Part shown: piece by piece, positions 5,906 to 64,000 of the stretch | Numbering within the stretch: the first letter of the stretch is position 1 | Layout: each line of letters opens with the position of its first letter | Assembly: GCA_963729445.1 (NCBI GenBank) | Contig: CAVSNU010000005.1 | Coordinates: forward strand, 769,615-833,614 | Reading direction: 5' to 3' | Length of the DNA: 64,000 nucleotides | From: an uncultured Chloroflexia bacterium | GTDB taxonomy: Bacteria > Chloroflexota > Chloroflexia > Thermomicrobiales > CFX8 | The notes under the pieces: model-generated | Told to the model about the DNA's origin: nothing | What the model saw: only the letters and a program-made list of their open reading frames with translations | Database searches by the model: none | Program-made: the position numbers and the translations under genes

Positions 5906-6108
5906 GTGCTCATGGACGACAACCCGACGGGTGAAAAGTCCACTCGGGTGGATCCTCGCCTGCTTCCCCTGTGCGCACACGTTGCCCTGTAAGGCGAGGA
6001 TTATGTCGCCTTGTGATCTTGCGCTACTGCCGTCAGTCGCAGTATGGTACCCGCGGCCCCAATGACCGCAGCGACAGCCGGAGCCTGATTCCCTGTAAGG
6101 AGCGATAG

Positions 6109-53818: not shown

Positions 53819-55012
53819 TTAGCCCCACATGCGCCGTACGAGATGGCGGTAGTGCTTTGGGTACCAGCCCAGGGCCGTGATCGGGCCTTTTCCGGGGTAG
53901 CCGGCAGAGGCGAGCTGGCTCGGTGTTGGAGCGACCGTCGCCGCGAGCATGCGCAACCGTTCCGTGGAAGAGCCGGCCCACAGGTCGAGCCGGTCGAGGA
54001 CGCCACGATGCTCGCGGCCGGCCCAGGAGATGTCCTGGAAGCCCACCCTGCTGAGCCAGGCTGCGAGCGCGGCAGTGACATGGGGACGCAGCTCGGCCTC
54101 ATAGTGACCTAGTGTGGGATGGGCGGTCCAGCGTGCCGCAAGAGCGACGGCGGGGTAGACAAAACGGGCGCGCCGCTCGATCCCCGACTTCTCGACGGCC
54201 GTGCGGATCGACGTGACGCCACCCGCCAGATCGACGGCCCGCGCGAAGTCAAAGATGTGAATCATGCGGGCGGTTCCTTCGAGGATCGCGATTGAGAGAT
54301 GCACGGCCAGGTGGAGAGCCATCGCCTGGGGGGACGGGACGGTGGCGTCGTCGACGTGCTGCAGGTTATTGGTGATCCAGGGGGTGATGTCCCAACGGAA
54401 GCCACGGAACATCTCGGTTACTGCACTATGCGACTCGACGTCGCGCGGGTTGCCGGGGTGTTCGCCATCGGTGTCGAGGGGCCGGTCAGCGGCGTCGCAC
54501 GGTCCATAGGTGCGGTGTTTCCAGGACTGACCGTGCAGGCAGTAGCCGGCGTGGGCGAACGCAAGATCGATCTCTCGCTCGCTGGGATGTCGCACCAGGA
54601 CGTCCAGATCGGCCATCGGCCGCCAGCTCACCCCGGCAAGGTCATCGAGGATCATCGCACTGCCTTTGAGCGGCACAATCGTGATGCCGGCACGGTCAAA
54701 AGCGTCGAGCGTGACGAGGAGCTCGTCACGCATGAGCTTGAGACGAGCCAGGTTACGCTGCGCTTGCTCGATGAACCAGGCATCCAGCTCGGCGCCAAAC
54801 GAGATCCGCCCGTCGCGGACACGCTGACCCATGATCGGAGCGATACCCTGAATTCCACACGCGAGCTGTGTGCTCTCAAGTGGGAGGCGGGCCGGCGCGG
54901 AACGAGGTGGCTGATCCTCGTTGAACAGCATGGTGGCGAGCGTGGCGGTCGTGTCGCGGAACACCTCGCGGTCGAGGTGGCTCCAGGTATCAATCACTGG
55001 CGGCATGGTCAC
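53819..55012 (-). CDS. Uncharacterised nucleotidyltransferase-family protein (NTP_transf_5-like)
   Basis: 397 aa: ..IVPLKGSAMILDDLAGVSWRPMADLDVLV.. matches the remembered pattern of that family. Last gene of the GT operon, with a 23-nt overlap. Confidence 0.5.
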   Translation of the reverse strand: MTMPPVIDTWSHLDREVFRDTTATLATMLFNEDQPPRSAPARLPLESTQLACGIQGIAPIMGQRVRDGRISFGAELDAWFIEQAQRNLARLKLMRDELLVTLDAFDRAGITIVPLKGSAMILDDLAGVSWRPMADLDVLVRHPSEREIDLAFAHAGYCLHGQSWKHRTYGPCDAADRPLDTDGEHPGNPRDVESHSAVTEMFRGFRWDITPWITNNLQHVDDATVPSPQAMALHLAVHLSIAILEGTARMIHIFDFARAVDLAGGVTSIRTAVEKSGIERRARFVYPAVALAARWTAHPTLGHYEAELRPHVTAALAAWLSRVGFQDISWAGREHRGVLDRLDLWAGSSTERLRMLAATVAPTPSQLASAGYPGKGPITALGWYPKHYRHLVRRMWG

Positions 55013-56210
55013 GCTTTCCCAGGAGCATTGGCTTGCGGCGCTGTCGCTGGTCCGTCAGGACTTCTTCAGCCAGGCCGAGGTATTCAGCCGCAACGCGATC
55101 CCAGTTATAGAGCTCGGTCGAGCGCTTTGCGGCAAGCTGTCCGAGCGCCCGCACCTCGTCAGGCGAATGACGTGCCCACTGCATGAGATTCGCCAACTCG
55201 TGCACGTCTGAGTAGTAACGCACGGTGTCTCCGCCGACGGCGCGATTGTCCGGCGTGTCGCGGGCCAGGACACAGTTTCCACACGCCATGGCCTCGATCA
55301 GGGCCGGGTGGGTGCCGCCGGAAGCCACCGGAAAAATGTAGGCATAGGCAAAGTGGTTGAGCTCCCAGTAGCCGGAGCCGTAGATCGCTCCAGTCAGTCG
55401 CGCGTTGGCGTTCGCGCCCTTCCGGAGCAATTGTTTGTACCCATCGGCGTAGGGCGCGTCGCCGACGATCACGGTGGGCATGTCCAGCTTTGCCAGGGCG
55501 GTCGCTTCTACCAGGTCAGTGACCCGATTCTCCGGTTCAAGCCGACCGACGTACAAGAAATAGTGGCATGGGTCGAGATCGTGCTCCTCCAGCGTGCCGT
55601 TCATCTCGGCCGGGCCGGAGGTGGCGCCGTAGGGGATGTAGCAGAGGTCGACGCCGCGGTGTGCGCGGTAATAATCCTGGACGTTGCGCGAGTCGGTGAT
55701 CGTGCGGTGGGCGACCTTCACCGAGACGCGCTCGGCTATTTTGAGCATCCGTTTCGCCCAGCCGGGCCACTTGTCGCGCTGCCAGTCGAGCCCGTCCACG
55801 TTCAGGATCACCGGCATTCTGCCGAGCCGCAAGAGTCCACACACCGGGCTATTTCCGACGCCAAACATGAAGACCACGTCGTAACGTGTGAACAACGCAT
55901 GCGCGGCGGAGAGCGTGGAGTGCACGATGGTATCGAGGTATTTCTGCCTGATCGTTGGCAACTTCACCAGCCGCACGCCTCGATAGGTGTCGTAGGGAAC
56001 ATCGATTTGCGGAGTGCGGCAGTAGACGCTGACGTCGTGGCCGAGCGCGGCGAAGCGCGGCGCCAGCTCCTCGACGCAGGTTTCGAAACCGCCATAGTTC
56101 GCAGGTATGCCGCGTGTGCCGAGCAGGGCAATTCGCAAAGCCTCTATCCCTTCGCAACGCGGCGTAGCGCATGTTGCCGCCCGGGTCTCGCCTCCAGGCG
56201 GCGCCGTCAT
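54990..56210 (-). CDS. Glycosyltransferase (GT4-like with a DUF1972-type N-terminus)
   Basis: ..RIALLGTRGIPANYGGFETCVEELAPRFAALGHDVSVYC..; C-terminal ..GGTHPALIEAMACGNCVLA.. Confidence 0.8.
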   Translation of the reverse strand: MTAPPGGETRAATCATPRCEGIEALRIALLGTRGIPANYGGFETCVEELAPRFAALGHDVSVYCRTPQIDVPYDTYRGVRLVKLPTIRQKYLDTIVHSTLSAAHALFTRYDVVFMFGVGNSPVCGLLRLGRMPVILNVDGLDWQRDKWPGWAKRMLKIAERVSVKVAHRTITDSRNVQDYYRAHRGVDLCYIPYGATSGPAEMNGTLEEHDLDPCHYFLYVGRLEPENRVTDLVEATALAKLDMPTVIVGDAPYADGYKQLLRKGANANARLTGAIYGSGYWELNHFAYAYIFPVASGGTHPALIEAMACGNCVLARDTPDNRAVGGDTVRYYSDVHELANLMQWARHSPDEVRALGQLAAKRSTELYNWDRVAAEYLGLAEEVLTDQRQRRKPMLLGKRDHAASD

Positions 56211-56215
56211 GGGTT

Positions 56216-57334
56216 TTACGCTTGGAGCTCGGAATAGGTTTGCAGAAACGCCATTACGTAGCGATCGGCATTGTAGCGTTCCCGGGCAGCACGCCGTGCG
56301 TTCTCCGCCAGCTCGGCGCGGAATCCTGAGTCCTCGATGACTCGTTGCAGAGCGTCGGAGATTGAGCCGGGATCACGCCCGCAGTACAGGCCGGTGACGC
56401 CGTCAATCAGGATTTCATCGCTGCCGCCTCCGTTGCGGGTGGCGACGACCGCGCAGCCGGCCGCCATGCCCTCGACGATAGCCAGCCCGAATGGTTCGGG
56501 ACGTTGTGACGGCACGAGCAGAATGTCGCTGCTCAGGTAGGCGGCAGCGGGATCGCACGTCTCGCCCGTGAAGGTCGTAATCGAATCGATGCCCAGCTCG
56601 TGAGCCAGTTGCTCATACTCGGCCCTGAGCTTTTGTTGTCCGGGCGGCGCGTCCCCAGTGAACGTGAGACGGAACTCCAGGCCGCGCAACGCCAGCATGG
56701 CCGCCGCTTGTAGCGCCTCAGCGACGCCCTTGCGCGGCGAGAGCCGCCCGACGACACCGATGACCGGGGGATTCGTCCGGATGCGGTCGCCGTCTATCGC
56801 GACGAAAACGGCGTTGTGGACGACCCGAGTCCTCGGTGAGCCGATCGAGCGGGCTGTTGCCTGCGAGTTGGCGACGACCAGACCAGGCAACCGCCTGAGC
56901 AGCAGCCGTAAGGGCACGCGGACGATGAATGGCTCGTCGCCCAGAAATTCGTGAACATGCCACAGGTGCGGTTTGCGCATGATGAGCGCGGCGAACACAC
57001 CACAGACAGCGGCGACTGTATTGGAGTGGACGAGCGTTACCCGTTCGCTACGCACGATTCTCGCAAGGGTCACAATACCGAGGAGGAACGCCAGCAGGGA
57101 GCTCGGGACTGCGCGCAGTTGCAGCTCATTGCGCCTCAAGACCAGCATCCGGCGCTTCAGAATGGTTGCGCCGCAGGCCGTGAGCTCGTGGGTGAGCGGG
57201 CCGGGGTGCGGAACGTCAGCCGGCAGAACGACGATGGCCCGGTAGCAGGAAGGCAATCCGCGCACGATTGCCAGCAGGCAGCGGTCAGAGCCATACAGCT
57301 CGTCGCTGGCGTGCACGAAGAGGATCGTCTTCAA
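56216..57334 (-). CDS. Glycosyltransferase family 4
   Basis: ..LVPSQRPEPFGLAIVEGMAAGCAVVATRNGG.. (E-x7-E-type motif). Confidence 0.85.
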   Translation of the reverse strand: MKTILFVHASDELYGSDRCLLAIVRGLPSCYRAIVVLPADVPHPGPLTHELTACGATILKRRMLVLRRNELQLRAVPSSLLAFLLGIVTLARIVRSERVTLVHSNTVAAVCGVFAALIMRKPHLWHVHEFLGDEPFIVRVPLRLLLRRLPGLVVANSQATARSIGSPRTRVVHNAVFVAIDGDRIRTNPPVIGVVGRLSPRKGVAEALQAAAMLALRGLEFRLTFTGDAPPGQQKLRAEYEQLAHELGIDSITTFTGETCDPAAAYLSSDILLVPSQRPEPFGLAIVEGMAAGCAVVATRNGGGSDEILIDGVTGLYCGRDPGSISDALQRVIEDSGFRAELAENARRAARERYNADRYVMAFLQTYSELQA

Positions 57335-58440
57335 CCACCCACACCCAACCGGCTGCGGAGCGTGGCCAGATAGACGTTCACGAGCTGGTCTGCGGCGCGT
57401 TCCCAGGTGAGGTCGCGGACCGCGAAGACCTCTGCGCTGGCCGCCTCGCGGGCCTTCAGGGGATCTCGCAGAATGGCCTCCAGCTCCCTCGCGAAGCCGT
57501 CAGCGTCGTCCGGCGGGACATAGCGAACGACCTCGCCACCGATTTCCAAGAGTGCCGGAATGGCGGAGGCAACCACTGGAGTTCCAAAAGTGAGCGCTTC
57601 GATCAGTGGCAAGCCAAATCCTTCGTGGCGCGAAGGCAGAATCAGCGCTTCGGCATACCGGTACAACCAGGCCAGCTGGCGGTCAGAAACCCCGGCGAGC
57701 ACTTTGAGCCAGGGCCGTTCTTCCGCGAGCTCCGCGCGTACCGATCCTGTGACGACCAGCGATGTGTTTGGTCGAGACTCGCGCAGCGTCTCGAATGCCG
57801 CAATTGCGGTGACCAGATTCTTGCGCGTTGAGTCGTCGCCTACAAACAGGACATAACGATTTGGCCCAACCGCCTCAACTGCGAGGGGCTCGACGTCGTG
57901 TAGATTCGTCGCGTTCCAGATGGCATGCATCTTCTCTGCCGGAATGCGGAACGACTCCACGATCTCGTCGCTTGCCGGCGCGCTCACGGTGACAACCGCA
58001 TCGGCACGCCGCGCTCCTATGCCGCCTATCGTCCGGACGTAGGCGCTCCAGAGGCGGGACGGCAGCAGGGGGCGCTGGAAATCGAGCGCATCATGCAGGG
58101 TCACGATTGTCGGACGCGGGGCGAACCACGGAGCGATGGTCATCGTATGGACGATATGGGCGTTACGAAGCACCGACGCAACCGGGATCCAGCCCTGACT
58201 CCACAGGAGATGGAGGAGACCGTTGAATGGAACGCGTAGCGACGGGGCCAGACGTTCAACGCGTGGCGCAGCGGTCGTGAAGACCTCCAGATCCGGGTCA
58301 TTTTGCAGGCAGCGCAACATCTCGCGCGTATACCGCCCGGTGCCATCCTGGCGATGGCAGTAGGTAACGTCGAACATCACCCGAACACGGGGCAAGGAAG
58401 AGCGTCCCTTGTGCTTTTTCATAACCGAGGTGTGTACCAC
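57331..58440 (-). CDS. Glycosyltransferase family 4/1
   Basis: ..ILPSRHEGFGLPLIEALTFGTPVVAS... 4-nt overlap with the next GT. Confidence 0.85.
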   Translation of the reverse strand: MVHTSVMKKHKGRSSLPRVRVMFDVTYCHRQDGTGRYTREMLRCLQNDPDLEVFTTAAPRVERLAPSLRVPFNGLLHLLWSQGWIPVASVLRNAHIVHTMTIAPWFAPRPTIVTLHDALDFQRPLLPSRLWSAYVRTIGGIGARRADAVVTVSAPASDEIVESFRIPAEKMHAIWNATNLHDVEPLAVEAVGPNRYVLFVGDDSTRKNLVTAIAAFETLRESRPNTSLVVTGSVRAELAEERPWLKVLAGVSDRQLAWLYRYAEALILPSRHEGFGLPLIEALTFGTPVVASAIPALLEIGGEVVRYVPPDDADGFARELEAILRDPLKAREAASAEVFAVRDLTWERAADQLVNVYLATLRSRLGVGG

Positions 58441-58481: not shown

Positions 58482-61400
58482 GTGAGTCGTGATCTGTCGC
58501 GCGCCGATCGGCAACAGAGGTTGAGCTACCGGAGTCTGCCGGCGCTGATCCTGCTGTGCGCCGCTGTCGTCGCGACGCTTGCACCCCCGTCCGTGCTCTG
58601 GCTGGACGTTGGCTCGCCCGGAGACGAACCGTTCGTTGCCGGCTTTTACCCTGCCGAGATGAACGCGCACGAGTCGTTCCGCTGGTCTGAGGGTGATGCA
58701 ACGCTCATACTGCCGGTCGAGCGATCGGGCCGCTATCGGGTTGAGCTGGCCCTGGCCGTCATCGAACCGGCGGGCCGGACGCTCTCCATGCGCTGTGGCG
58801 ACGACACAAACACGCTCGCGCTCGACAGGCAGCCGGGCAACAGCACCGTGGTGTTTGACTGCCGTGCCGCTGGAGGCGAGCTCAGCGTTGAACTGAGTGT
58901 GCCCACGGTGCAGATCGGCGGCAGCGCCGAGCGTCCTCTGGGCATCTCGGTGCGCGATGCGCGCGTCGCCGCACTTGACTGGCCGGGCATGTTCCTTGCA
59001 CGCGCGCGAGTTGCCACTGCTGTGCTGGGCACGCTCGGCGCCGCCTGGCTGCTCGCCGCGGCGTTTCGTTTTCGGCGGCCCGGCCTGTTTCTGGTGGCGC
59101 TGGCCGGCGCGGGTTGGCTCGCTCTGACGCTCATCCGTCCCGAGTGGGTGTTGCCGGCAGTGGCGGGACCGGCAGGTCTCCTGGCGCTCGTCGGGGGAGC
59201 GGTCGCCTGGTATCTGTCGCGTGACTCGATCCGTGCGGCACGGGTGGTGGCCTTGCTCGCCCCGCTGGCGTTGGTCGTCTTGCCGCAGCAGGAGCTGGTG
59301 TTGACGTTGCCGTCGCGTTGGATCGCTGGCGACCTGAGTGCGGTAGCTCTCACACCCTGGTTGGTTACCGGGACGATCCTGGTAGCCGGGTGGAGCAAGG
59401 CGCTCTACCTGGCGGTTGCCGGGAGCCTTGTTGCACTGGGTACGAGCGCCATGCCGGTGGCTGCGAAGCTCGTGGTCGAGCGCCATGACTTCACGCTGGC
59501 CGTTCCGGATTGGACCGACCAGGTATCAGTGGCCGGTGCATGCTACCTGCTGGCGATTGTGGCGATCCTTCTCGTCGGCATCGCAACCGAGCATCAGCGG
59601 GGTGCCCTCGCGGTCGTCCCGATCGTGGCCCTGGGGCTGGCGGCGATGCTGGGCTGGCGCGTTGCCGTGATGGATTTCAACGGCGACGAGCCTCACTACT
59701 ATGTGACGGCGCGCTCACTGGGCAGTGATTACGATCTGGAGCTGCTCAACAACTATCATGAGGAATCGTATCGAGAGAACACGATCTCACCCGATGGCAA
59801 CATCGCCGTCGTGCGCGACGCTACCGCGGACCGCTATACACCTGTCTTCCAATCAGATCCAGGGCACGGCGAGAACGCCGGCACTACGGACGCGATCCGG
59901 CTGGCTAACGGATCAATGGAGTGGGTGCCGCCGCTTGGCGCGGGGATCTCGCGGACGTTGCTCTTTACTGGAGACTGCGATGTCGACTCAGTGCAGGTCG
60001 CCGCGCCGGACGGTGGCTCGCGCGACGTGCACCTGTACCTGCGTAACGCTGCCGGGCTCGTCATCTGGGAGTCAGAGAGCACCTTCGCCAGTGTTGCGCA
60101 GATACCGCTTCGCAACACGTGTCGAGGTCATCCGTCGAGCTTAACCATCGAATCGAGCAACGGTCCGATCTTTGCCTATGCCGTGGACGAGCACGCCGGA
60201 TTGAAGATGTTGCCCGGTCGCGGCGCGGGAGACCTCGCCCTGCTCGGCAGCCTGCCACGAGATCGCTATGCCTATCCGGACGTCGTGACCGAGCTCGCGC
60301 TACACAATCCCGGGTCTCGGACGGTTACTGCGTCGATCGCGTTGCTTGGCGGGAACAGTGAGCCACAAGACATCCTCGTTGACATCCCCGGCGGAGGGAC
60401 GGCGCTACGGCATCTCCGGACGCAAGGGTATGAGGCGATACGCGTCGATCCGGCTGACCGGTTGGTGGTGCAGGGTATCGGTAGGGTCTGGGCCGGTACC
60501 TACGCCTTGCCTACCATGGAGACGCTAGACGAATGGACTGTCGCGTTGCCTGCCGACGGGACGCACGACTCCGGGGTCTGGCTCAGCCTCGCGAATGAGT
60601 CCGGGGATACTGTCGACGTGACCGTCGATGATGGTGGCGACGATCGCCTCGTCGAGATGTGTGCAGGGTGCTTTGAGACGCTGTTGCTCGCCAGGGGAGA
60701 ACACGAGCGTGAGGTAGTGGTGCGTGCTGAGGGTCACGGGATTGTCGCTTCCGCCGTTCAGTATGAAGAACGGACCGGCTCGCTGCACTTCGATCCCGGC
60801 CTGCCGCTGCTGGCGGCTCCGTTGGCCCGCTTCGGCAGCCCGATGGCAGTGCTGCTGGTGCCTCTTCTGGCGGCTGTCGCGATGGCGCCGGGACTCGTGT
60901 TGTTGCTCAAACGGGTCGGCGTCGGCGAGCCGGGCGCGACCGCCTGTGCTGCCGGCGTAGTCCTGCTGGCCCCGGTGTCGCCCTACGCCACCCGGCTGTA
61001 CACGGAGATCGTGGCGGCCTGTTTGTTGGTCTGGGCACTGGTGCTCTGGGACATGGCCGGTCGGCGTACACAGTATCTCCTCCCCTTCGCAGGGATCGCA
61101 CTGCTCCTGCCGGTGTTACATGGCCGTTTTGTCGTCCTTGCCAGCGCGTTGGGGTTGCTCGTCGTGTTGCGCGTTTTTCCAATGTTGTCACGTCTCAACC
61201 GTCAGTCAGGGGTTGCCCTGGCCGGATCAATGCTCGCGCTCGGACTGCTGGCGGTAGTGGCGGTGCAGCTGAGTGTCGGATTGCGTGAGCGGGTGACGGC
61301 GTCGTACATCGCGACGAACTGGGCCGATGTCGGCCTGGCAGGTGTGGTGTTGGATCGCGGCAGTGGCGTGCTCCCGTTCGCACCCTGGTTGCTACTGGCG

Positions 61401-61943
61401 CTGTTCGTGCCCAGACCGCTACAGCCGCTTCAGCGGGTGGCCCTGGGGCTCGTCTTGTTGCAACTGGCGGCGGTGATCGTTAGAGCGGGAGGCTGGCAGA
61501 CCTGGGGAGCGCCGGCACGCTACGTCCTACCGGTCGTGGCCCTACTGGCGCTCCTGATTGCGCCGGCGATGCAACGGCTGTGGGTTTCCCGTCCGGCTCG
61601 TCCCGTGATGCTTGGGCTGATCGGTTGGGGCGTCGCCATGACGTTCATGCTGCACTGGCTGCCATTATCTGGCTATGTGCTGCGAGGGCGCTACCTGGTC
61701 GACGAGGCGTGGCGAGGCGTCATCGAGTTTTCCCCGATGGTGCTGTTCCCGCGCGTGACTCCGGCGCCGGGTTCGTTCCTCATTGGCACCACGCTGACGT
61801 TCGCACTGCTGGCAGGGGCCGCCTGGTTGCTGTTGAGCAGTACAAGCCTGCGTCCGAAAAGAGCTGTCGGGGCGCAAAGCAGCGTGCGCGAACCTTCACC
61901 CAATCCGATTCCAGGTGAGATCGGGTTCGATGATGGAGGATGA
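58482..61943 (+). CDS. 1153-aa polytopic membrane protein of unknown function with a ~330-aa soluble central region
   Basis: GTG start with AAGGAG just upstream. Hydrophobic blocks span residues ~15-35, ~170-400 and ~760-1120. Divergent from the GT operon with only 41 bp between the starts. No family recognised with confidence. Confidence 0.55.
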   Translation: MSRDLSRADRQQRLSYRSLPALILLCAAVVATLAPPSVLWLDVGSPGDEPFVAGFYPAEMNAHESFRWSEGDATLILPVERSGRYRVELALAVIEPAGRTLSMRCGDDTNTLALDRQPGNSTVVFDCRAAGGELSVELSVPTVQIGGSAERPLGISVRDARVAALDWPGMFLARARVATAVLGTLGAAWLLAAAFRFRRPGLFLVALAGAGWLALTLIRPEWVLPAVAGPAGLLALVGGAVAWYLSRDSIRAARVVALLAPLALVVLPQQELVLTLPSRWIAGDLSAVALTPWLVTGTILVAGWSKALYLAVAGSLVALGTSAMPVAAKLVVERHDFTLAVPDWTDQVSVAGACYLLAIVAILLVGIATEHQRGALAVVPIVALGLAAMLGWRVAVMDFNGDEPHYYVTARSLGSDYDLELLNNYHEESYRENTISPDGNIAVVRDATADRYTPVFQSDPGHGENAGTTDAIRLANGSMEWVPPLGAGISRTLLFTGDCDVDSVQVAAPDGGSRDVHLYLRNAAGLVIWESESTFASVAQIPLRNTCRGHPSSLTIESSNGPIFAYAVDEHAGLKMLPGRGAGDLALLGSLPRDRYAYPDVVTELALHNPGSRTVTASIALLGGNSEPQDILVDIPGGGTALRHLRTQGYEAIRVDPADRLVVQGIGRVWAGTYALPTMETLDEWTVALPADGTHDSGVWLSLANESGDTVDVTVDDGGDDRLVEMCAGCFETLLLARGEHEREVVVRAEGHGIVASAVQYEERTGSLHFDPGLPLLAAPLARFGSPMAVLLVPLLAAVAMAPGLVLLLKRVGVGEPGATACAAGVVLLAPVSPYATRLYTEIVAACLLVWALVLWDMAGRRTQYLLPFAGIALLLPVLHGRFVVLASALGLLVVLRVFPMLSRLNRQSGVALAGSMLALGLLAVVAVQLSVGLRERVTASYIATNWADVGLAGVVLDRGSGVLPFAPWLLLALFVPRPLQPLQRVALGLVLLQLAAVIVRAGGWQTWGAPARYVLPVVALLALLIAPAMQRLWVSRPARPVMLGLIGWGVAMTFMLHWLPLSGYVLRGRYLVDEAWRGVIEFSPMVLFPRVTPAPGSFLIGTTLTFALLAGAAWLLLSSTSLRPKRAVGAQSSVREPSPNPIPGEIGFDDGG

Positions 61944-61969
61944 CAACCCGATCCTCTATGCACAAAGGA

Positions 61970-62001
61970 GCGTACGGGCGCAATGAATTACGCCCGTACG
62001 C
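61970..62001. terminator. Hairpin with a perfect 11-bp stem (GCGTACGGGCG / CGCCCGTACGC) and a 10-nt loop
   Basis: Read from the sequence 27 nt after the stop at 61943. Flanked by A-rich sequence on the + strand and T-rich sequence on the - strand. Confidence 0.55.
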
Positions 62002-62091
62002 AGAAAAAGGGCCGGTCTCAATTCGGTTCCCTGATCAAGCTGGATATTTCCCTAATCAGGCTCCTCCGAAGAACGAGCGGCGAGACGAACG

Positions 62092-62259
62092 TTACGAGAT
62101 AGACTCTTCGTAGCGCCTGGCGACGCCCTGGGTAATGCGGTCGATGACGATCGCGAGGGCGACGATACAGAAACCCGCCTCAGCGCCGCATACAGGGCGG
62201 AGCGGTGAATCATACACGAATGTCGCCTATGCACCAATACCCATCGAGGTAACCACTGC
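62092..62259 (-). pseudogene. 3'-terminal stump of a glycine-betaine/proline-type ABC permease (ProW/OpuAB-like) with an internal TAG
   Basis: Hand translation: AVVTSMGIGA*ATFVYDSPLRPVCGAEAGFCIVALAIVIDRITQGVARRYEESIS*. The ..G..IV.LAI.LDRITQ.. ending is typical of that permease family. Only ~55 codons remain. Confidence 0.5.
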
Positions 62260-62262
62260 CAG

Positions 62263-62919
62263 CTATAAGGGCTTCATCGATTCAGCAATGATCATTAACT
62301 CGAGCTCGCTACTAAGAAGTTGTGTCCGCAGATGCTGGACTCTTATTAACGTCCACGTTGTATCTCTCTCAAACATTATCTCATGAACGTGACCAGTCTC
62401 CCATCGTACCTTCATGTTTCCAGAGTTGTCTTCCCGTGCTACCCAGCCCCCGTTTACTACGTAGCCAGGATATCCATTCACCGCGATCTCGTGATGAAAA
62501 CCTTCCTTGACCATTGGATGTCCTGCATTGGAGAATTGAAGTACGCGGATCGTATCTCGGAGATTTTCACCGGGCCCCTTGTAGGTTAGTTGGGATGTCG
62601 CCGCTCCCCACGCCACTGCCTCCGTCAGTTCAAAGTCATCCGGTATATGCGTGGGAACGTGAAGGGTACCAATTTTCTGCTTTACATCCTCAAGTGTCAT
62701 ACGCGGACCTGCAGCCTGTTGTCGCGACGCTTTGGTCTGCCGATGTCCACGCTGGTCGACGAAGGGCAGTTCGTTGTCCTCGGATAGTGGTCGCAACTGG
62801 ATTAGTTGATGTCCAACCATAATAGATAACCATCCTTCAACGTCTATATACGCAAAGAGGTATAATAACCCGTCAATTGCAGCAATCAGAACAGGCACTA
62901 CCGGCGCCAGGATCTGCAC
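62263..62919 (-). CDS. DUF4367-like protein with an N-terminal hydrophobic anchor
   Basis: ..HVPTHIPDDFELTEAVAWG..YKGPGEN..IRVLQFS..IAVNGYPGYVVNG..VRWETGHVHEIMFERD..ELELMIIAESMKPL* follows the remembered DUF4367 pattern (P-x-G-F .. W .. eLi.iAeSl). The start is uncertain (62919 or 62821). Confidence 0.55.
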   Translation of the reverse strand: MQILAPVVPVLIAAIDGLLYLFAYIDVEGWLSIMVGHQLIQLRPLSEDNELPFVDQRGHRQTKASRQQAAGPRMTLEDVKQKIGTLHVPTHIPDDFELTEAVAWGAATSQLTYKGPGENLRDTIRVLQFSNAGHPMVKEGFHHEIAVNGYPGYVVNGGWVAREDNSGNMKVRWETGHVHEIMFERDTTWTLIRVQHLRTQLLSSELELMIIAESMKPL

Positions 62920-63292
62920 AGCAATGCCAATCTAGGTAGTAGCAGTAGTTGGCGCCGTCTTGGCAACACGCAGGTGGATAATCACACATCGAGTTACAAC
63001 ATGTGCTGTGAGTGCCGTCTGCTACAAAGTAGGAACCGAAACAAGTACCATATGGCCGGTCATCTGGACATTCCCCATGAGGGCCGCCACAGATGTCATC
63101 GGACCTGCAGCCCATCAGCCAATCGGTAAAGTAGTAACATTGGCAGCTACCCGGAAAACACGTACTCGCGGAAGCACTTGAGCCAAAAAGTTGCCCACTG
63201 GCCTGTGGAGGCAGAAACTTAGAGGCGACCGTCGCGACCCCTGCGGCTATCGAGCCTCGAATCAGGCTCCTCCTCGTAGTCGGCTTCCGCAT
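62873..63292 (-). CDS. Twin-arginine-signal, cysteine-rich secreted protein (18 Cys in ~105 mature residues); no family recognised
   Basis: MRKPTTRRSLIRGSIAAGVATVASKFLPPQASG | ..STCFPGSCQCYYFTDWLMGC..TCCNSMCDYPPACCQDGANYCYYLDWHCCADPGAGSACSDCCN. GGAAGGAAGAG RBS upstream. Confidence 0.6.
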   Translation of the reverse strand: MRKPTTRRSLIRGSIAAGVATVASKFLPPQASGQLFGSSASASTCFPGSCQCYYFTDWLMGCRSDDICGGPHGECPDDRPYGTCFGSYFVADGTHSTCCNSMCDYPPACCQDGANYCYYLDWHCCADPGAGSACSDCCN

Positions 63293-63334
63293 GACGATCG
63301 CTCTTCCTTCCTAGCCCAGTAGGCTCTACTCCAA

Positions 63335-63868
63335 CTAATTCGACATCCTAGGTTTCACCGAAACCGCTGCGAGACGCAAGCTAGCTGCAATGGCAAGCAT
63401 TGACAAAGTCGCTGCAATAGTGGCACCAACGGAAGGCACTGCCGCAAATAGCTGAAAGATTGATGGTGCTTCGCCCCCGACCACCACCAGAAGCGCCGCT
63501 AGCGCTAACAGAATTGCATCCCTGACCAAAGTGGGCCATCCCACACGTTCTCGATAAAGAAGGCCAAAACAGCTACACGACAGATTCTGCTTACGCGCTA
63601 TCACTAGCAAAATAGCGACAATAAAGCTTAGGGTCATGAGGACGACGAGAAATGCCCCAACTCTCACTTGGACCCCTGAAAGGAGTAGGAGAGCAGAAGT
63701 TGCTTCAATGAAAGGTAGGGCCCACCCGTAGGCTTTAGCGAAAGGGGGAGCCAAAATGCGGTAATTGACAACGTTGTTGGCAAACGTGTGCAAAGAGACA
63801 AACTTCCCGCTTGCAGAAATAAAAAAGATGCTTCCGATAACTACTCGAATGGCTACTTCAAGCAGCAT
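63335..63868 (-). CDS. MauE/DoxX-family redox-associated membrane protein
   Basis: Start at MLLEVAIRVVIGSIFFISASGKF (ATG 63868, AGGAGG 6 nt upstream). Four to five TM segments and the motif ..NLSCSCFG.., remembered as typical of MauE-like proteins. The ORF extends to 63976. Confidence 0.65.
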   Translation of the reverse strand: MLLEVAIRVVIGSIFFISASGKFVSLHTFANNVVNYRILAPPFAKAYGWALPFIEATSALLLLSGVQVRVGAFLVVLMTLSFIVAILLVIARKQNLSCSCFGLLYRERVGWPTLVRDAILLALAALLVVVGGEAPSIFQLFAAVPSVGATIAATLSMLAIAASLRLAAVSVKPRMSN

Positions 63869-63945
63869 TCCAGTCCTCCTGTGGTCTATCTTCGGCCGAC
63901 TGTGAACGCTCCAAGCAAAGACAGTGCAAGAGCGCTTCGATGACC

Positions 63946-63980
63946 ATAATTGTATATAGAGCTTATGACTGTACAATCAT
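63946..63980 (-). promoter_or_regulatory. Candidate promoter on the minus strand (TTGTAC, 16 nt, TACAAT) embedded in inverted repeat ATAATTGTA-n17-TACAATCAT
   Basis: Read from the sequence: -35 = revcomp of 63971-63976, -10 = revcomp of 63949-63954. AT-rich, about 70 nt upstream of the MauE-like start. Confidence 0.3.
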
Positions 63981-64000
63981 TATACTCTACTAGGCCAAAT

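Follow-up and report, generated by a model that had tools for sequence, protein, structure and literature searches.

What does a MauE-family membrane protein do when it is encoded beside a cysteine-rich exported protein, with no other methylamine dehydrogenase (mau) gene around it? The question is raised by positions 62263-64000 of a 64,000-nt stretch of contig CAVSNU010000005.1 (assembly GCA_963729445.1, from an uncultured Chloroflexia bacterium), hereafter the window. Here three tightly packed minus-strand open reading frames (ORFs) form an islet of low guanine-plus-cytosine (GC) content; they encode a MauE-family protein, a protein with 18 cysteines and a putative twin-arginine translocation (Tat) leader, and a protein related to DUF4367 (protein 3). 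With a confidence slightly better than even, we read the three genes as a cassette that is complete in itself, was probably acquired by horizontal transfer and serves the oxidative folding of a new family of disulfide-rich mini-proteins exported via Tat. Enzymes of this kind are already known (since 2026), and mauE/mauA is an earlier example of a MauE beside a Cys-rich client of Tat. What appears to be new, as judged by comparing related loci, is a MauE subfamily dedicated to an unannotated family of Tat-exported Cys-rich mini-proteins, with a constant DUF4367-like partner and frequent linkage to TatA; neither the tie between subfamily and client, nor the partner, nor the TatA linkage was found described in the preprint on MauE discussed below or in the searchable literature.

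The three genes and their parts lie in the window as follows.

63335-63868, minus strand: MauE-family membrane protein, 177 aa, ATG at 63868 (PF07291 match, subfamily alignment and AlphaFold2 model)
63874-63880, minus strand: Shine-Dalgarno sequence AGGAGGA, 6 nt before the MauE ATG (sequence reading)
62873-63292, minus strand: Cys-rich ORF, 139 aa, preceded by the ribosome-binding site GGAAGGAAGAG
63167-63292, minus strand: leader of the Cys-rich protein, residues 1-42, with the motif T-T-R-R-S-L-I, a hydrophobic region, S-K-F-L-P-P and a candidate cleavage site between A-S-A and S
62873-63166, minus strand: mature Cys-rich domain, 97 aa plus the stop codon, with 18 Cys, acidic and lacking Lys
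62263-62823, minus strand: protein 3, 186 aa, ATG at 62823, preceded by GAAGGA; signal-less, Cys-free, DUF4367 superfamily

The first of these ORFs had been placed in the MauE family by an earlier note written from the sequence alone, and a hidden Markov model (HMM) search bore this out: PF07291 was matched at 92 bits (cut-off 27; E 4.8e-26) over profile positions 6-126 of 128, and the DoxX model at 26.7 bits. The start at 63868 was preferred to a TTG at 63976 because AGGAGGA precedes the ATG, and the same start was used in the gene call on a Logan contig (run ERR11593883) that encodes a MauE identical over all 177 aa and runs collinear with the window. In an alignment of 31 subfamily sequences, K22, E55 and the string C98-x-C100-F-G-L-L-Y-R-E-x-V-G-W-x-T-x-x-R-D were invariant, the active-site motif of the window protein being C98-S-C100-F-G. 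An AlphaFold2 model built with the subfamily alignment as input (pLDDT 87.7) contained five helices; its CSC motif was located within a flexible loop (92-110) between helices 68-91 and 111-130, that is, between transmembrane segments TM3 and TM4, with K22 in TM1 and E55 in TM2. The MauE of P. denitrificans, taken for comparison from the genuine mauRFBEDA-amicyanin-JG cluster, was 24% identical to the window protein, with the Lys, the Glu and CxCF aligned. The NCBIfam model HvfX (NF050144), a DoxX family of copper-binding-peptide maturation, scored 15.6 bits (E 0.013) against a cut-off of 80.

In a preprint of March 2026 (Gonzalez et al., bioRxiv 10.64898/2026.03.05.709764), MauE is reported to form disulfides as a DsbB-like oxidase whose active site is a CXC motif. 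MauE proteins from two phyla (of D. aliphaticivorans and C. abyssi) substituted there for E. coli DsbB, as seen from motility and PhoA activity; the CXC pair, followed by a conserved F-G, was essential, and a Lys of TM1 and a Glu of TM2 flanked a predicted, docked quinone site. MauA was present in only about 10% of the MauE-containing species. As far as sequence can tell, the window MauE has every feature that the preprint associates with disulfide-forming activity, and its mechanism is of an already-known kind because that oxidase activity has been demonstrated. The earlier note had taken the role of MauE from methylamine dehydrogenase genetics and supposed the module to be uncharacterised; we indeed found no description of the module, whereas the biochemistry of MauE has since been shown.

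To place the islet among its relatives, GTDB genomes and JGI metagenomes were scanned with the MauE subfamily alignment (patterns CFGLLYRER and CFGLLYRE), which yielded 30 loci, or 36 distinct loci when earlier look-ups were included; these are numbered L001 onwards. A genome contig scan with the single MauE protein had given no match, in contrast to the alignment-based scan. The signature of the subfamily is CxCFGLLYRERVGW (in full, CxCFGLLYRERVGWxTxxRD). Neighbouring genes were found by HMM searches of six-frame ORFs. A DUF4367-like neighbour was present at 25 of the 36 loci, a leader or Cys-rich ORF at 19 and both at 16, several of the remaining loci being too short to tell.

Two gene orders were observed. 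In type A, MauE is followed by the Cys-rich gene and then by the DUF4367-like gene (the window, L001/2/10, L003/4, L006, L007 and L023), and in type B the Cys-rich gene comes first, followed by one or two DUF4367-like genes, MauE and, at some loci, TatA (L008, L011, L013, L014, L016, L018, L019, L022, L029, L031, L033 and L036). TatA (PF02416) was directly 3' of MauE at six related loci (L008/L009, L013, L014, L015, L016 and L017); the islet of the window itself lacks it. One short DUF4367-like gene accompanied each Cys-rich gene, with two such pairs in L008, and two metagenome-assembled genomes (MAGs) held two systems each on the same contigs (L011 with L016, and L013 with L019). The linkage was found in GC backgrounds from 0.36 to 0.66. 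Among 18 genome loci, 14 belonged to Dehalococcoidia MAGs and one to a Chloroflexia MAG, while two were small contigs binned as Desulfobacterales and Rhodothermales; one match of a protein search was labelled SAR202. Chance neighbourhood is unlikely because the linkage recurs at 16 to 25 of the 36 loci and in two orders, together with a cysteine framework shared at 18 of 18 positions (see below), and on these comparisons the triad is not a chance juxtaposition.

Some further features of the related loci were recorded. A gene for an LVIVD-repeat beta-propeller protein (about 380 aa) was inserted in the cluster at two distant loci, L002 (2378-3511, type A) and L018 (6812-7969, type B). It recalls H. 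pylori DsbI, a relative of the DsbB type in which a beta-propeller domain is described (PMC4597128). Large serine recombinases (Resolvase, Recombinase and Zn_ribbon_recom domains) were found within 8 kb of MauE at five Dehalococcoidia loci, which may indicate a mobile context. They lie at the following positions.

L014, 2782-3975: serine recombinase
L016, 771-2420: serine recombinase
L020, 11151-11684: serine recombinase
L026, 13623-14822: serine recombinase
L027, 11974-13341: serine recombinase

Stop-codon readthrough or selenocysteine recoding, which would join in-frame Cys-rich and DUF4367-like ORFs across a single stop, was considered and rejected, since being in frame at 5 of about 10 loci does not differ from the one in three expected by chance.

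The second gene encodes exactly 18 cysteines, as had been counted in the earlier note, and none of 2000 shuffles of the ORF reached 18 Cys codons. Its mature domain also contains three His, is strongly acidic and is rich in aromatic residues. The leader reads T-T-R-R-S-L-I-R-G, followed by a 14-residue hydrophobic region and the A-S-A/S site, which was placed by eye. The Tat signal claimed for this protein stood in part: the twin-arginine motif is there, and the Tat-signal models were the sole recurrent family match among its relatives (7-8 of 19 members at E<=1, best 1.4e-3), whereas the window protein itself stayed below the cut-offs of both models (14.9 against 22.7 bits for PF10518; 13.7 against 16.7 for TIGR01409). 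Tat export is thus a prediction supported at the family level, with the adjacency of TatA as independent support.

An exhaustive HMMER scan of 1.84 billion representatives returned only two true relatives of the Cys-rich protein. Further copies came from the neighbourhoods of the closest MauE homologs, at L007, L003/L004, L006, L002, L023 and many type-B loci; those that can be singled out are as follows.

L007: Cys-rich copy, intact, 137 aa
L003/L004: Cys-rich copies, frameshifted at a C-run
L006: Cys-rich copy P0047
L002: Cys-rich copy, 167 aa

In an alignment of 19 members, R7, R8, P28, C50, C62 and C75 were invariant and P29 and C52 nearly so; the twin-arginine motif had the consensus S-R-R-R-F-L and was followed across the family by a conserved (S/A)-x-F-L-P-P tail. 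Behind the leader, the members share a CxC...C...C...P scaffold in their N-terminal part; their C-terminal half, also Cys-rich, is hypervariable, and the number of Cys is 10-18 and mostly even (18, 18, 16, 16, 14, 14, 12, 12). It was the cysteines that were kept: between the window protein and L007, all 18 Cys columns were common while the other mature residues were 25% identical and the leaders 66%, and with L003, 16 of 18 Cys columns were common, the non-Cys identity being 25-29% over the L007 and L003 comparisons. The mature domain had no relative in Pfam, NCBIfam or the PDB (the last searched with a family profile as well), and word-indexed homology searches with the Cys-rich ORF and with protein 3 gave no homologs.

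Homology of the Cys-rich protein to MauA was rejected; it has no Pfam match, and BLASTP aligned the generic Tat leader only (E 0.05). For the same E value a specific homology to the MauA leader, suggested by the same spacing from RR to L-L-P, was also rejected. Generic Tat signals such as that of TorA have the same architecture.

Type-B leaders (L011, L019, L022 and L008) begin with MWLKRKDRQT and carry a His-rich stretch, DHAHEHGHPHEESG, directly before the twin-arginine motif. An N-terminus of the MWLKRKDRQT type, followed by RRF and a TM segment, was also seen on anchored DUF4367-like proteins (L005, 3980-4750; L012, 5792-6610), and in L037 it is a non-Cys domain, about 290 aa long, to which the leader is joined. 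It seems that the leader has been shuffled as a module.

The third protein had been called DUF4367-like, and this was upheld through its homologs though not by a direct match: the window protein gave no hit to PF14285 (DUF4367) at E<=1, while 3 of 7 members of its family did (best E 2e-4), and a two-domain paralog in L016 reached 28.3 bits (gathering score 22.1) over profile positions 2-110 of 110. An HMM built from the short forms only retrieved this paralog at E 1.5e-13, and because the short forms and the L016 paralog thereby link the family to PF14285, we take protein 3, on profile evidence, as a homolog of the DUF4367 superfamily, if an outlier. It aligned with the neighbours of Cys-rich genes elsewhere through VPxYLPxGF, VKxG, NGxPGxxVxGxW, LxFER and ELxxIAxSL. 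The DUF4367-like proteins fell into two classes. Those of the first, to which protein 3 belongs, are short (about 185 aa), without signal peptide, TM segment or Cys, and always stand directly after the Cys-rich gene; those of the second, which adjoin MauE, are anchored or are lipoproteins, and many of them have two domains. A GTG start at 62919 would add a hydrophobic N-terminus to protein 3. This start with its TM-like segment was rejected: the homologs lack the segment, and the stretch is an alternative frame of the 3' end of the Cys-rich ORF. The N-terminal LIxLxPL following the preferred ATG was conserved in L003, L007 and L006. A PDB sequence search with the family profile and a scan of viral contigs found nothing for protein 3, and the literature on DUF4367 is almost empty.

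The composition of the islet and its border at 62263 were as the earlier note had described them. The GC content drops at 62263, being 0.507 over 62263-64000 against 0.628 (SD 0.025) over the remaining 62 kb or so of the window, where the lowest of 603 equal-sized windows had 0.560. Since GC at third codon positions was also low (0.49-0.53 across the three genes, against 0.75 in an adjoining 1153-aa ORF), the drop is not an effect of amino-acid composition. GC at the host level resumes exactly at the stop codon of protein 3. The packing of three co-oriented genes, each with a good ribosome-binding site (AGGAGGA, GGAAGGAAGAG and GAAGGA), was confirmed, and the AT-rich, promoter-like region ahead of them holds a candidate -10 element. 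Two elements delimit the unit.

63979-63984, minus strand: candidate -10 element, a perfect TATAAT, in the AT-rich region 5' of MauE (sequence reading; the -35 position lies outside the window, so that the element was unscored by the consensus scan)
61970-62001, strand not assigned: GC-rich hairpin of 14-15 bp between the convergent genes for protein 3 and the 1153-aa ORF

The hairpin is likely to be a bidirectional terminator and marks the 3' end of the three-gene unit. At the other end, the earlier note had supposed that the cluster continues past the window and that its upstream half was cut off. This did not hold: on the Logan contig, two same-strand ABC-transporter permease genes (BPD_transp_1) lie upstream of MauE, the nearer ending about 102 nt beyond the window edge and leaving a gap of 233 nt to MauE. 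As ABC permeases sit upstream here and none like them were found in the related MauE loci, the module is complete at three genes.

The opposite flank is an ordinary glycosyltransferase region, and on either side the islet adjoins unremarkable host genes. A search around it for marks of insertion turned up neither a tRNA nor an integrase, nor any convincing direct repeats at its flanks, and searches with PADLOC, PHROGs and Rfam were negative. The islet was probably acquired horizontally. The GC of the module was below that of its flanks at nearly every one of the 36 loci, typically by 0.03-0.10 and at most by 0.16, the window islet (0.51 against 0.63) standing at the large end of this range; because nearly all loci show it, low GC is a trait of the module family and not only of the present insertion.

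A repeat was noticed within the islet and its 3' border. The perfect 14-mer at 63260-63273, which encodes R-R-S-L-I of the Tat motif, recurs at 62054-62067, and an 11-mer spanning the start codon of the Cys-rich ORF (63291-63301) recurs at 62144-62154. Both copies keep the same order in the non-coding stretch 3' of protein 3; about 0.01 such 14-mer repeats are expected in 2.1 kb, and the alignment outside these seeds is patchy. A second leader or Cys-rich gene may once have stood here and left them as its remnant.

How might the three products work together? In the sequence of events that we propose, the precursor would be exported via Tat through its RR...(S/A)xFLPP leader, which would then be cut at the AxA site (A-S-A/S). 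Outside the membrane, the 18 thiols would be oxidised to about nine disulfides, with electrons passing to the CSC pair of MauE, either directly or via a thioredoxin-fold carrier of the host, and from MauE onward to the quinone pool. The DUF4367-like protein would bind the Cys-rich protein as its cognate partner, acting either as a cytoplasmic holdase or leader- or substrate-binding escort, or by being co-exported in a complex through Tat "hitchhiking". Escort or co-export is suggested by three features together: the short forms have no signal, each adjoins one Cys-rich gene, and Tat would be the export route. Hitchhiking is considered because the anchored DUF4367-like paralogs are extracytoplasmic. 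Because the leader and the N-terminal scaffold are conserved while the C-terminal half is hypervariable, the alignment suggests that the mature mini-protein is a diversifying secreted effector or binder. The earlier note had proposed a MauE-dependent maturation module for a Cys-rich protein other than MauA. Comparative genomics supports the module, while the relationship between MauE and its client, like the role of the DUF4367-like partner, is what we infer from sequence and gene linkage.

Several points weigh against this proposal. The client link of this particular MauE comes from gene linkage and not from experiment, and the preprint presents MauE as a generalist and not as a dedicated factor (Gonzalez et al., 2026). 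An earlier proposal of MauE as a reductase is cited there, and, to go by that citation, the direction of electron flow is disputed. DsbB-type enzymes normally use a thioredoxin-fold carrier, yet no thioredoxin-fold gene (MauD- or DsbA-like) was found in the cassette or conserved in the related loci. Tat normally exports folded proteins, which is awkward for a disulfide-dependent fold that would be formed after export. A Foldseek search with the MauE model revealed no likeness to DsbB, VKOR or any other solved structure (best E 0.75, TM-score <0.3), so the DsbB analogy is functional and topological and not one of shared detectable fold. The Logan gene caller left the Cys-rich ORF uncalled, and the single-sequence AlphaFold2 model of protein 3 (pLDDT 31) was too low in confidence for use of its fold. 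Lastly, many metagenomic copies carry a single-base frameshift in one of the three genes (L003 at 981-1056, L004, L007 at 1293-1344 and L011 at 5943-5995; in MauE at L015/L021/L025/L036/L038-L040), which could mean decay. Many of these copies are from long-read MAGs and are likely to reflect indel errors, but the Illumina-based L003/L004 are not easily dismissed, nor is the Logan twin of the window locus, where the distance from MauE to the end of protein 3 is offset by 2 nt and protein 3 is thereby shortened to 201 aa.

A bolder form of the proposal would make the products a new class of secreted disulfide-rich mini-proteins built after the pattern of conotoxin superfamilies, with a constant Tat leader and N-terminal scaffold before a hypervariable Cys-rich half. 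Each would be co-exported via Tat in an already assembled complex with its own signal-less DUF4367-like partner, the dedicated MauE would then lock this complex by oxidising its client without a thioredoxin-fold intermediary, and the purpose would be antagonism between bacteria or specific binding of surfaces or ligands in Chloroflexota. We hold this form to be rather improbable.

The cassette resembles several known systems without coinciding with any of them. With the MauE pathway of the preprint it shares PF07291, the CXC-F-G in the TM3/TM4 loop, the TM1 Lys, the TM2 Glu and the lack of the rest of a mau cluster. The preprint takes a generalist view and contains no neighbourhood analysis (the strings "neighbo" and "operon" are absent from its text); here, in contrast, the subfamily CxCFGLLYRERVGWxTxxRD is tied genetically to one substrate family and a DUF4367-like partner. 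MauE-thioredoxin fusions make up 8.2% of MauE proteins (Gonzalez et al., 2026), whereas no thioredoxin-fold protein is fused or adjoining here, and the window subfamily is centred in Chloroflexota, outside the phyla tested experimentally.

In the mauE-mauD-mauA arrangement of P. denitrificans plasmid 1 (mauFBEDACJG), a MauE gene likewise lies near a gene for a small, very Cys-rich exported protein with a Tat leader: MauA, of 131 aa, with 12 Cys in six disulfides, which on genetic evidence does not mature without MauE. The leaders are also similar in length and in where the L/F-L-P motif follows RR. The islet differs in lacking MauD, MauB, MauG, MauF, MauJ and amicyanin, in the DUF4367-like partner that stands in place of MauD, in the low identity of the two MauE proteins noted above, and in a Cys-rich protein that is not homologous to MauA and implies no tryptophan tryptophylquinone chemistry.

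The likeness to DsbB-DsbA and VKOR lies in the proposed logic: electrons pass from substrate thiols to quinone through the redox-active, extracytoplasmic Cys pair of a small polytopic membrane protein. Unlike them, the window MauE has no detectable similarity of fold or sequence to DsbB or VKOR and a single CXC pair instead of the two Cys pairs of DsbB; no DsbA-like carrier is encoded nearby, and the proposed client is co-encoded, not proteome-wide.

Clusters of the HvfX/bufferin type, which make ribosomally synthesised and post-translationally modified peptides, also set a DoxX-superfamily membrane protein (NF050144) beside a small exported Cys precursor with a conserved leader. They comprise MNIO (DUF692) and DUF2063 genes and a precursor with a Sec signal and an EGKCG-type peptide. 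The present loci depart from this at each point: the HvfX score was far below its cut-off, neither an MNIO (DUF692) nor a DUF2063 gene was present, the conserved neighbours were only the Cys-rich, DUF4367-like and TatA genes, the precursor carries a Tat and not a Sec signal, and its core of about 100 aa with 10-18 Cys is no short EGKCG-type peptide. Tat proofreading chaperones (TorD, DmsD and NapD) and hitchhiker export (hydrogenase small and large subunits) resemble the triad in having a signal-less protein beside each Tat substrate and a leader conserved past the minimal RR, and the role proposed for protein 3 is drawn from this likeness. There is no sequence relationship to these chaperones, the DUF4367 relatives of protein 3 are anchored outside the membrane, and binding is predicted by analogy.

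Other explanations of the islet were weighed against the oxidative-folding cassette. The one that survives best, unlikely as we consider it, holds that the Cys-rich protein is a secreted, disulfide-stabilised toxin or bacteriocin matured by MauE, with the DUF4367-like protein as its cognate immunity or neutralising protein. The hypervariable C-terminal half behind a conserved leader and scaffold would agree with this, and so would the strict 1:1 adjacency of the two genes with its doubled pair in L008, the presence of several systems per genome (L011+L016, L013+L019), the islet-like low GC with a patchy distribution, and the serine recombinases near five loci. However, the searches of the window gave no match to defence, phage or toxin families, and neither a dedicated transporter nor a lysis gene is present; the short partners, which have neither a signal peptide nor a TM segment, would be kept apart from an exported toxin unless they were co-exported, and an acidic, aromatic-rich mature domain of about 100 aa is unlike known bacteriocins.

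Somewhat less probable still is a Tat substrate that binds a metal or cofactor (metallothionein-like, or with Cu, Zn or Fe-S) and is loaded in the cytoplasm, where the DUF4367-like protein would be a metallochaperone-like assembly factor and MauE would act as a reductase, maintain thiols or serve other substrates. Proteins that contain a cofactor are usually exported by Tat, and this reading would explain its use here. The very acidic mature domain with 18 Cys and 3 His, and the His-rich stretch before RR in type-B leaders, could be read in the same way; beyond the four N-terminal positions, however, Cys placement varies freely among members, as it would not in a cofactor-binding motif, their counts are mostly even, aromatics are abundant, and no CxxCxxC ferredoxin-type or metallothionein-type pattern is seen. 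The weak HvfX likeness of MauE is set against its shortfall from the cut-off and the lack of an MNIO/DUF692 partner, and the reductase proposal, known here through its citation in the preprint, against the finding that MauE from two phyla oxidises in vivo (Gonzalez et al., 2026).

That the genes are coincidental neighbours, MauE being a generalist envelope oxidase and the other two ORFs passengers or non-genes, is very unlikely and has been largely refuted by the conservation described above. The generalist view of MauE in the preprint, the uncalled Cys-rich ORF, the fruitless word-indexed searches with genes 2 and 3 and the frameshifted copies would fit it, but not the linkage in both gene orders at 16-25 of 36 loci and at GC from 0.36 to 0.66, the conservation of the framework at 18 of 18 Cys, the strong ribosome-binding sites on all three genes and the foreign composition that these genes share.

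We give slightly less credence again to an envelope redox-sensing module, in which the Cys-rich protein would be a redox ligand whose state is set by MauE and signalled by the DUF4367-like protein. DUF4367 is commonly annotated on the C-termini of anti-sigma factors, and anchored, lipoprotein-type DUF4367-like paralogs adjoin MauE in type-B loci; against this, no sigma factor, anti-sigma N-terminal domain or other regulator was conserved at any related locus, and protein 3 of the window has neither a TM segment nor a zinc-finger anti-sigma domain.

A fragment of a canonical mau cluster, superficially suggested by a MauE-family gene beside one for a small Cys-rich protein with a Tat leader as in mauE...mauA, has a negligible probability and is refuted for the available sequence by homology searches: in tblastn with the P. 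denitrificans Mau proteins, MauE alone matched the window (E 8e-5), while MauA, MauB, MauD, MauF, MauG, MauJ and amicyanin gave only E>0.02 there and nothing in 27 related loci, where no other mau gene was conserved, the Cys-rich protein aligns with MauA in the generic leader only, and ABC permeases lie upstream. The absence of MauB, MauD and MauG reported in the earlier note is thus extended. With regard to the observations that it had named as fatal to its proposal, MauE matched its family, the Cys-rich homologs conserved their framework and the flanks were not those of a canonical mau cluster.

For the oxidative-folding cassette, the wider interest is as follows. MauE is possibly the second most common disulfide-forming enzyme of bacteria (Gonzalez et al., 2026), and the present loci show one of its subfamilies genetically wired to a single client family, with a new partner protein and often with TatA. 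Three genes in about 2 kb, apparently transferable, offer a compact test system for substrate recognition by MauE and for the need of a thioredoxin-fold carrier. The unannotated family of Tat-exported disulfide-rich mini-proteins occurs in Chloroflexota, a phylum of which few members have been cultured and whose envelope biology is little known. The loci also place the uncharacterised DUF4367 domain in a functional context for the first time, and bear on the old puzzle of why MauA-like Cys-rich proteins use Tat.

Beyond the islet, a 57-aa ORF (61940-62113, plus strand) overlaps the hairpin and the intergenic region. Listed among the genes of the Logan contig, it has neither homologs nor domains and is probably spurious. 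The 1153-aa ORF on the far side of the hairpin (58482-61943, plus strand) encodes a polytopic membrane protein without a Pfam match and adjoins three GT4-type glycosyltransferase genes (53819-58440); it may represent an as yet uncharacterised polymerase or transferase of envelope glycans.

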